A stretch of DNA of 12,647 nucleotides, taken from the IMG/VR virus record IMGVR_UViG_3300028888_003076, one strand, 5' to 3'. The position numbers and the translations under genes are program-made. This document shows positions 3,890 to 4,591 of this stretch, in pieces. The number at the start of each line of letters is the position of its first letter. Position 1 is the first letter of the stretch. The DNA is from a virus. The notes beneath the pieces are model-generated. The model did no database searches. It saw only the letters and a list, made by a program, of their open reading frames with translations, and had not been told where the DNA came from.

Positions 3890-4591
3890 ATGTTGCTTAA
3901 AAGAAGATGCCTTGGAGCCGGCATTCTAATAGGACTTGGGGCACTTGCTAATATAATGGTCGGTGGAGGCTGGTTAGGTTCTTTACTTTTTGCTACTGGA
4001 TTATTTAGTATTTGTGTAAACTAGTATTTATTATTAACTGGTTAGTTTGCTAGATTATACCGTAAAGATGAAGACTTTATATATAACTTAATAGAATTAA
4101 TTTTAATGGCTAATCTTAATTTTTTGGGGATAGTTATAGTAGTACTTTTGACTAGTTTTATGACTCATTCTGCTACAAATGATGTTGCTATTAATATTGC
4201 GGTAGCCCGTAATGCTAGATTATGGTATCAACATATTGCCGCAGGAGTTATTTGCGGTTCATGTATTTAGATTGCTGTTCAAAATTATAAAAAAGATAAA
4301 TCTGCTATTGGTGTTATTTTACCAGTAATGGTATTTATCTTAACAGGTAGTGAACACTGTATAGCAGATTTCTTTTATTATATGTTAGCTCATAATATGG
4401 GGACGCAGCAATTTTTACAAATTTTAGAAGTAATGTTCGGTAATTTTATCGGAGCAAGTTTGGTTCTATTTTGTAGTTCGAGCAATGCAATCCCATATCT
4501 TTTTCCCGTTGACATTCAGTAGCCATTTGACAATGACAAGTCGAACAATGCTTCTCAACCAAATGAGGATTCTTCACCTGGACATTCATAA
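3890..4591 (+). CDS. Formate/nitrite transporter (FNT) family channel-like membrane protein of about 233 aa, with four in-frame TAG codons
   Basis: KSAIGVILPVMVFILTGSEHCIADFF matches E. coli FocA KAFIMVLPVAMFVASGFEHSIANMF. GALANIMVGGGW resembles GILANLMVCLAVW. FGNFIGASLVLF resembles GNIIGGGLLVG. There are six hydrophobic segments. The RBS gaagga precedes ATG 3890. The frame is continuous to TAA at 4589-4591 only through the TAGs at 4022, 4043, 4268 and 4520. The track fragment 4328..4522 is the C-terminal part of this gene. Confidence 0.55.

Follow-up and report, generated by a model that had tools for sequence, protein, structure and literature searches.

A virus-derived stretch of 12,647 nucleotides (IMG/VR record IMGVR_UViG_3300028888_003076; hereafter the window) carries an intact and functional gene for a short channel of the formate/nitrite transporter (FNT) family, which belongs to a jumbo phage of gut or rumen (~240 kb) and is recoded, with TAG standing for glutamine. 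Judged from its relatives, the protein may be a minimal FNT channel that supplies formate for deoxyribonucleotide (dNTP) synthesis by a class III ribonucleotide reductase. This functional assignment is made at the level of the family, and we consider it evenly balanced between right and wrong. The FNT family as such and one published phage FNT were known before. In the literature searched, no description exists of the short subfamily, of its distribution among gut and rumen phages, of its place in nrdD-nrdG operons or of the heavy recoding seen here; searches for the short subfamily and for a pairing of phage FNT genes with nrdD and nrdG (nrdDG) each returned no paper.

Reading frame, upstream region and recoding of the FNT gene

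The 233-codon frame starts at an ATG directly preceded by TAA, which fixes the start of the gene, and is interrupted only by TAG, at codons 45, 52, 127 and 211 (Table 1). Both the four TAG codons and the location on the strand opposite to the neighbouring genes had been noted in the original prediction and are borne out. At the GC content of the window (0.345), the chance of a frame of this length without TAA or TGA is ~3e-6 per start position. When TAG is translated as glutamine, the Pfam family PF01226 (Form_Nir_trans; TCDB 1.A.16) is recovered with 73.5 bits (E=2.2e-20; curated cut-off 34.6 bits) over profile positions 26-234 of 240, and masking the four TAG positions as X still leaves 70.4 bits. 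The protein contains the motif GSEHCIADFF, in line with the (S/G)xEH(S/C)IA(N/D)(M/F)F core and the length of about 233 residues given for it earlier, and its description as an FNT homologue is upheld by the Pfam match as well as by its fold and pore residues; the refuting outcome named for it, profile searches that miss Form_Nir_trans, did not arise. The NCBIfam models for FNT, FocA and FocB reach only 37, 32 and 20 bits against cut-offs of 232-499 (TIGR04060, 32 bits versus 290; TIGR00790, 36.9 versus 232). These weak matches mark the protein as a divergent member of the family and not as an orthologue of any named channel.

Full-length orthologues (P0001-P0005), with identities falling from 93% to 45%, were found in public metagenomes. 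A megablast comparison of the window with 50,697 deposited phage genomes found no match, and tblastn with the FNT core gave two weak matches only, both in unannotated faecal 'Bacteriophage sp.' fragments. A minus-strand open reading frame (ORF) over the tail of the gene, 4446-4883, was rejected; it is uncalled in every orthologous locus, and the convergent neighbour stops at 4795.

The ~70 nt upstream of the ATG, which contain a putative promoter and ribosome-binding site, are almost invariant between the window and the orthologous loci L001, L003 and L008, with a dS of 0.56 for the gene between the window and L003. This conservation supports functional elements, and TTGACT-17-TAAAAT probably acts as the promoter that had been proposed for the gene. 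The consensus scan alone is not significant: it located 18 promoter-like sites against 13.4 expected for this AT-rich region, which is no enrichment. In contigs of 39.5, 105.9, 239.6 and 247 kb, the last of them an ENA scaffold of 247,200 bp, the gene occupies an equivalent site with unchanged orientation, as a plus-strand gene among small minus-strand ones. Position and orientation are conserved down to 45% identity of the FNT; the upstream region was compared down to 82%.

Among the orthologues, TAG exchanges with CAA or CAG at codons 52, 114 and 131. At codon 52 the window, L001 and L008 have TAG where L003 and L005 have CAA or CAG, and codon 131 is a standard glutamine codon in the window and TAG in L003. 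One of the three exchanges affects the conserved glutamine of the LWYQHI motif, which is encoded by CAA in the window and by TAG in L001 and L003. Codon 127 is TAG in all four close orthologues, at a position that is glutamine in 92% of the window lineage. At codon 45 the window, L001, L003 and L008 all have TAG, phage relatives have Q or K, and 60% of the bacterial relatives have G; this codon aligns with the glycine of the G-x-[ED]-L-F-T motif, where one TAG had indeed been placed (as G-A-D-L-F-T). Codon 211 is TTG (Leu) in L001 and TAG in L008.

Like the window gene, the orthologous FNT genes are untranslatable under the standard code. All orthologous phage copies compared end in TAA, and a bacterial relative in an Oscillospiraceae metagenome-assembled genome (MAG), which uses the standard code, ends in TAG. 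The 22 window genes stop at TAA (16) or TGA (6) and never at TAG. A tRNA with a CTA anticodon is encoded outside the window, on the IMG/VR contig 3300028805_000039 (L177 12441-12510); it folds into a cloverleaf, is closest to tRNA-Gln genes and lies 1.7 kb after tRNA-Gln(CTG) and ~44 kb from the FNT gene. On this sequence evidence, namely the exchange of TAG with glutamine codons, the absence of genes ending in TAG and the tRNA(CTA), TAG is glutamine in this phage. Reassigning TGA or TAA for the whole window gave no sensible gene map and was rejected. The reassignment of TAG opens four window genes only; the remainder consists of many small TAG-free genes and is not a mis-decoded region.

The CTA suppressor forms part of an array of ~40 tRNA genes for all 20 amino acids, from L172 16103 to L177 14554 (~175-204 kb of the same contig). 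A further, odd tRNA, whose anticodon has four bases (tgtt), was predicted by ARAGORN at L177 13797-13868, and the window itself holds one tRNA-Glu(ttc), at 12114-12190.

Read with the standard code, the frame has four breaks, which could point to a decaying pseudogene of a captured host transporter with the TAGs as true nonsense mutations. We rejected this reading, which keeps practically no probability, because of the codon exchange at conserved glutamine positions, the intact orthologues (at least five, all free of frameshifts and of internal TAA or TGA stops), the absence of window genes ending in TAG and the suppressor tRNA in the genome. It is further contradicted by the ratio of nonsynonymous to synonymous substitutions (dN/dS) of the core, which is 0.16 versus L001, 0.14 versus L008 and 0.17 versus L003 (range 0.14-0.18) and indicates that the core is under purifying selection. 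The value for the tail, ~1.5, comes from few sites.

Predicted fold and pore residues

The structure was modelled with AlphaFold2 for the 93%-identical orthologue P0001, standing in for the window protein (overall predicted local distance difference test (pLDDT) 87.7, predicted template modelling score (pTM) 0.81). According to the model the protein has the FNT fold, a protomer of six transmembrane (TM) helices in which TM2 (H27-43/H53-57, omega-loop) and TM5 (H139-151/H157-166, S-loop) are interrupted. The top 50 PDB matches of a Foldseek search are all FNT channels (FocA, HSC and PfFNT), with best TM-scores of 0.70-0.78. The C-terminal tail that follows the core is missing in the orthologues P0003 and P0004, and its motif is still recognisable in P0005 (63% identity). 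The original prediction had located two of the TAG codons in TM helices. On the model this applies to codon 127 alone, in TM4, whereas codons 45 and 52 lie on either side of T50, where a non-helical stretch interrupts TM2; codon 211 falls in the tail.

Residues invariant in 36 aligned relatives include F34, L38, L48, T50, G51, N77, F149, H156, A159 and N185, and the EHCIAD segment aligns with EHSVAN/EHCIAN of the solved FNTs. In the profile alignment to HSC of Clostridioides difficile, L48, T50, R107, F149 and H156 fall on L82, T84, K148, F194 and H201. The HSC residues probed by deposited mutants, L82, T84, K148 and F194, all have conserved counterparts in the window protein. Hence the hydrophobic constrictions (F34/L38/L48/F149), the T50-H156 pair and a basic residue at position 107 are all kept, and the same pore signature is present in the nrdDG-linked phage copies and in the bacterial copies. 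Position 107 is R in 100% of the window clade and K in 94-97% of the other groups.

With FocA (3KCU, 3KLY, 3Q7K, 9I3K) the protein shares the fold (TM-score 0.70-0.76), the Thr-His pair, the constrictions, the EH(S/C)IA(N/D) S-loop and the basic vestibule residue, and formate is the presumed substrate here too. It differs by its core of ~197 instead of ~280 residues, by an identity of 15-20%, and by Arg for Lys in the vestibule and Asp for Asn after IA. It lacks the cytoplasmic helix at the N-terminus by which PflB regulates FocA, as well as ~10 residues between TM1 and TM2 and pieces of other loops, and the gene is not beside pflB. HSC (FNT3; 3TDO) can be aligned by profile over its full length (70 bits, positions 4-194 of 204) and, like the nearest bacterial relatives of the window protein, comes from Clostridia. 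The two are ~18% identical, however, and the window protein is ~60 residues shorter and without a link to sulfite-reductase genes.

Table 1. Features of the FNT locus and of the vault-like gene, in window coordinates.
Feature	Position	Strand	Remarks
Sigma-70-like promoter (putative)	3837-3865	+	TTGACT (3837-3842), 17-nt spacer, TAAAAT (3860-3865); 10/12 consensus matches
Ribosome-binding site GAAGGA	3873-3878	+	11 nt before ATG; invariant in four orthologous loci
FNT gene	3890-4591	+	ATG start, TAA stop 4589-4591; 233 codons, TAG read as Gln
Channel core	3890-4480	+	Codons 1-197; six predicted TM helices, TM2 and TM5 broken; pLDDT ~95
TAG codon 45	4022-4024	+	Gln; end of TM2a, before the omega-loop
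Thr50 codon	4037-4039	+	Counterpart of the pore threonine (FocA T91, HSC T84); invariant in 36 relatives
TAG codon 52	4043-4045	+	Gln; immediately after the invariant T50-G51
Arg107 codon	4208-4210	+	Position of the vestibule lysine (HSC K148, FocA K156), from profile alignment to HSC and its K148E mutant
TAG codon 127	4268-4270	+	Gln; within TM4
His156 codon	4355-4357	+	Counterpart of the central pore histidine (FocA H209, HSC H201); invariant; in the EHCIAD motif
C-terminal tail	4481-4588	+	Codons 198-233; acidic/polar, predicted disordered, fast-evolving, pLDDT 44-59
TAG codon 211	4520-4522	+	In the disordered C-terminal tail
Peptides linked to the question of FNT recoding			VNQYLLLTGQFAR, GSCIQIAVQNYK
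Vault-like protein	912-3254	-	780 aa; MVP_shoulder 6.7e-19, Vault_3 1.3e-8; within indel 858-3366

Phage short FNTs, nrdD-nrdG and the proposed function

A profile search of 1.84 billion cluster representatives returned 5,470 FNT relatives, 1,021 of them at E<=1e-30, and the best 150 are almost all 190-220 residues long. By sequence, the window protein belongs to a large short-FNT subfamily (~200 residues) of gut and rumen anaerobes and their phages. Hosts among species-representative genomes are Clostridia (Lachnospiraceae, Oscillospiraceae), Fibrobacter, Erysipelotrichaceae, Selenomonadaceae and Acholeplasmatales. Bacterial members such as P0035 (Oscillospiraceae MAG) and the phage protein A0A8S5NWF3 fall in the same length class (190-220 aa) and have the same invariant residues. 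The bacterial copies, annotated merely as 'formate/nitrite transporter family protein', differ in their standard code and in lacking a link to nrdDG. The window lineage is ~30% identical to them and adds the C-terminal tail, R107, LWYQH and Q127. A single peptide pattern retrieved 86 viral contigs with a short FNT from IMG/VR, and BFVD holds one annotated phage copy, the above A0A8S5NWF3 (also annotated in UniProt). FNT genes are thus not rare in gut and rumen phages and, with a cyanophage focA already published (PMC8115048), to call them untypical phage cargo was an overstatement.

By a crude ORF-coverage test, ~39 of 80 viral FNT loci are TAG-recoded and ~11 of 80 seemingly TGA-recoded. About 50 of 80 FNT-bearing viral loci thus look recoded, which possibly reflects an enrichment. 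Some viral short-FNT genes (L010, L011, L054 and L055) contain in-frame TGA and end in TAG, and several FNT contigs (L050, L053 and others) gain ORF coverage only with TGA as a sense codon; the same channel seems to occur in TGA-recoded phages too.

The gene neighbours were compared between 80 viral FNT loci, with NrdD or NrdG counted within 10 kb, and 80 bacterial loci, where the limit was 6 kb. NrdD and/or NrdG lie near the FNT in 63/80 viral versus 3/80 bacterial loci, and the FNT directly adjoins one or both in at least 48 of the viral loci. The linked loci represent 40, 22 and 8 FNT clusters at 90, 70 and 50% identity, respectively. In most viral loci the clustered neighbours form a same-strand replication and nucleotide module of a DnaE-like polymerase, NrdD, FNT, NrdG, dUTPase and a RuvC-like nuclease, and the gene order is either NrdD-FNT-NrdG or NrdD-NrdG-FNT. 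Pfam matches of the neighbours are NRDD (E=5e-149, plus ATP-cone and glycyl-radical domain) and the radical-SAM activase Fer4_12.

The FNT-linked NrdD of L020 scores 407 bits with 8P23, 311 with 9D3X and 262 with T4 NrdD (1H78), compared with 40 for the thioredoxin-type enzyme of T. maritima, and a Met-Gly-Cys finger loop is found in 11/11 FNT-linked NrdDs examined. From these features the FNT-linked NrdDs appear to resemble the formate-dependent type. The reductant of NrdD1-type class III ribonucleotide reductases is formate (PMC4493059, citing Mulliez et al. 1995; PMC9176816). With a phage FNT inside the operon of a formate-consuming enzyme, a formate channel is the simplest reading. A precedent for a channel beside the consuming enzyme is the cyanophage focA-nirA nitrite pair, in which a phage FNT stands next to the enzyme that consumes its anion (Gazitua et al. 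2021, PMC8115048). That focA resembles the window gene in its sigma-70-type promoter and in purifying selection (PMC8115048). It is, however, a canonical cyanobacterial nitrite-type gene, 86% identical to that of the host, in standard code and known from a single marine scaffold, whereas the window FNT is TAG-recoded and belongs to a divergent short subfamily spread over dozens of gut and rumen phage lineages, with relatives paired with nrdD and nrdG.

Two further observations concern the linked loci. The NrdD of L061 (6689-9784; 1,031 aa) carries an intein-like insertion in the finger loop, exactly between Met-Gly and the catalytic Cys, with a homing-endonuclease-like segment, and free-standing GIY-YIG-like genes flank the FNT in many nrdDG loci.

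We propose that transcription of the window gene starts at its own sigma-70-like promoter and runs against the direction of the small TAG-free genes around it. Full-length protein would be made only once amber suppression is active, with translation stopping at codon 45 before, and the channel would share its expression class with the other TAG-rich window genes. By analogy with the solved FNTs, it would form a pentamer in the host membrane and pass small monovalent weak-acid anions. Formate would be the likeliest substrate, because phage relatives mostly carry the short FNT between or beside formate-type nrdD and nrdG, and the benefit would be reductant for the anaerobic ribonucleotide reductase during replication in a strictly anaerobic host.

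Several points weigh against this proposal. FocA, NirC and HSC share one core, so that the substrate of an FNT is not readable from its sequence. The window is 98.3% identical over its full length to the IMG/VR contig IMGVR_UViG_3300028805_000039 (239,565 bp), and the search for nrdD and nrdG was negative for the window, for L001, L003, L005 and L008 and for the 88.5 kb (37%) of that 239.6 kb contig that were read, from 120,960 to 209,471. The window clade (12 members) sits in a group of 20 with 7 other viral copies and one MAG contig, none of them nrdDG-linked, and in a crude neighbour-joining tree without support values the window FNT is not nested in the nrdDG-linked clades. Position 107 (R for K), position 49 (L/V for F/Y), LWYQH and Q127 are specific to the lineage, and selectivity could differ. 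The position syntenic to nrdD-FNT-nrdG holds a 499-aa gene and tRNAs instead. Finally, the heavy TAG use (4/11) suits late genes better than replication genes.

The genes that follow nrdD-FNT-nrdG in the linked phages, namely the c7-like gene, the dUTPase gene and the TAG-rich RuvC-like gene, have homologues in the 88.5-kb stretch. To judge from this shared gene content, the window phage is related to them at the level of the module, and its FNT is now elsewhere. Most of the group that includes the window clade is on large contigs, ~74-380 kb. A radical-SAM ORF (L175 11303-12172) was considered as NrdG and rejected as generic and not NrdG-like. About 6-8 kb past the right end of the window lie genes for a nucleoside 2-deoxyribosyltransferase (L168 3670-4137) and a PcfJ-like protein (L168 2053-3165), the former indicating that some nucleotide-salvage capacity is encoded close to the FNT.

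The main rival to formate supply is a working FNT channel with another substrate or a purpose unrelated to ribonucleotide reduction, such as export of formate or lactate from fermentation, pH homeostasis, or passage of nitrite, hydrosulfide or bicarbonate that keeps the metabolism of the infected anaerobe active. This is possible, if on the doubtful side. FocA, NirC, HSC, PfFNT and LCIA all match the profile and have this pore core in common, the window clade has its own vestibule residues and no nrdDG link, and the published phage FNT was interpreted as a nitrite transporter (PMC8115048). The rarity of nrdDG beside bacterial short FNTs also implies that the ancestral role was something else. 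However, no neighbour in the window clade suggests nitrite, sulfite or lactate metabolism, and a formate-consuming enzyme is the only partner with which phage short FNTs are strongly and recurrently associated.

The distribution of TAG bears on the time of expression. The window contains 13 TAGs, in the FNT gene and the ORFs 3433-3780 (-), 5392-5643 (+) and 5845-6279 (+), while the 18 other genes have none; in 5392-5643 all 3 of 3 glutamine codons are TAG. The share in the window FNT, 4 of 11 glutamine codons (36%), is extreme among FNT loci. Most TAG-recoded FNT loci have no TAG within the FNT gene, which contains it in 13 of the 39 such loci over the matched stretch and in 16 of 39 over the full ORF. 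In the recoded nrdDG phages, TAG makes up 0.2% of the glutamine codons of the polymerase, 2.6% in NrdD, 5.6% in NrdG and 15% in the FNT, and ~50% in the RuvC-like protein and in a 1,850-aa protein on the opposite strand. As far as can be judged from codon counts, this bimodal use agrees with the published view that recoding sets expression classes apart. Code-15 gut phages (Borges et al., bioRxiv 10.1101/2021.08.26.457843; Peters et al., PMC9523058) are similar in the concentration of TAG in a subset of genes, the tRNA(CTA) and the gut or animal setting; these papers do not mention FNT, formate or a transporter, and here it is a transport gene, instead of a structural or lysis gene, that is among the most TAG-rich.

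A late or lytic role has been suggested for recoded genes, among them one for a membrane protein of a lysis cassette (bioRxiv 10.1101/2021.08.26.457843). The FNT scaffold might alternatively serve as a leak, a late membrane effector that appears in full length once TAG is read as Gln and then collapses ion gradients or sets the time of lysis in a holin- or antiholin-like way. The TAG content shared with the other TAG-rich window genes would suit such a role, as would the absence of the helix that regulates FocA (the profile match starts at position 26). We regard it as unlikely. The strictly kept T50, H156 and R107 and the hydrophobic constrictions are unneeded for a leak, gating by TAG is not a feature of the family given the minority of recoded loci with TAG in the FNT, and in the nrdDG phages the FNT is part of the replication module. 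The scanned proteins of the window and the flanking loci, which include a minority of the small neighbours, contained no recognisable endolysin, spanin or holin.

A role in superinfection exclusion or defence, or another non-transport membrane function of a moron-like gene, is very improbable. It would agree with the gene's own conserved promoter on the strand opposite to its neighbours and with the variability of the region, where indels distinguish near relatives (vault-like and HNH genes). The FNT gene itself, however, is invariable in its place over the whole range of orthologues and conserves its pore residues, no integrase or lysogeny genes were seen, and translation requires the phage's code, which argues against expression from a silent prophage. 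Of the three functions that the original prediction had offered, the auxiliary metabolic one is favoured by the conserved pore and the nrdDG-linked relatives, whereas nothing specific speaks for the holin-like and superinfection-exclusion roles.

Neighbouring features and implications

Scans of the window and flanking-locus proteins with PHROGs and Pfam were almost all blank, save for a DEDD exonuclease-like and the vault-like protein, and the local context gives no functional hint. The vault-like protein aligns with rat and human major vault protein over ~470 residues (E ~1e-19); such a homologue on a phage is unusual. Its gene is free of TAG, and PHROGs gave no match. Both the window and the 239.6 kb contig carry it, but the corresponding site in L001 is without it, and L003 shows no gene of that size there. 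A second presence/absence difference is an HNH_3 endonuclease gene in L001 (14998-15615), which is absent at the window site 8793-8901.

Just past the TAG-rich plus-strand ORFs 5392-6279, the region 6320-6836 contains at least 12 copies of the palindrome CGGTAA(A/T)TTTTACCG, spaced by ~33 nt, and after them an AT-rich TATA-type block (6748-6836). The relatives have no called genes there, and in L001 the region is conserved though rearranged. Its sequence looks like a replication origin, with iterons and an unwinding element, or like an operator array.

More generally, and tentatively, short FNTs might be widespread, undescribed auxiliary genes of phages that open the membrane of an infected anaerobe to extracellular formate of the gut or rumen, for dNTP synthesis by the formate-dependent NrdD of phage or host. 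In the window phage the channel would have become uncoupled from nrdDG and doubly locked, by a host-type promoter and by its TAGs (three in the core, one in the tail), with a pore formed only after the code switch. The window FNT is a clean case of recoding, a membrane protein that is neither structural nor lytic and yet among the most TAG-rich, in which the exchange at a conserved glutamine proves the reading. This makes it useful for asking whether recoding sets the time at which proteins appear that would do harm or serve no purpose at an earlier stage. For the uncharacterised short-FNT subfamily, with more than 1,000 sequence clusters, the nrdD-FNT-nrdG arrangement provides the first functional lead. 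Metabolic genes of phages are usually enzymes; a channel that feeds an enzyme its reductant would, if confirmed, represent a different logic of takeover, one specific to anoxic, formate-rich habitats such as gut and rumen, and would tie phage replication to interspecies formate transfer.

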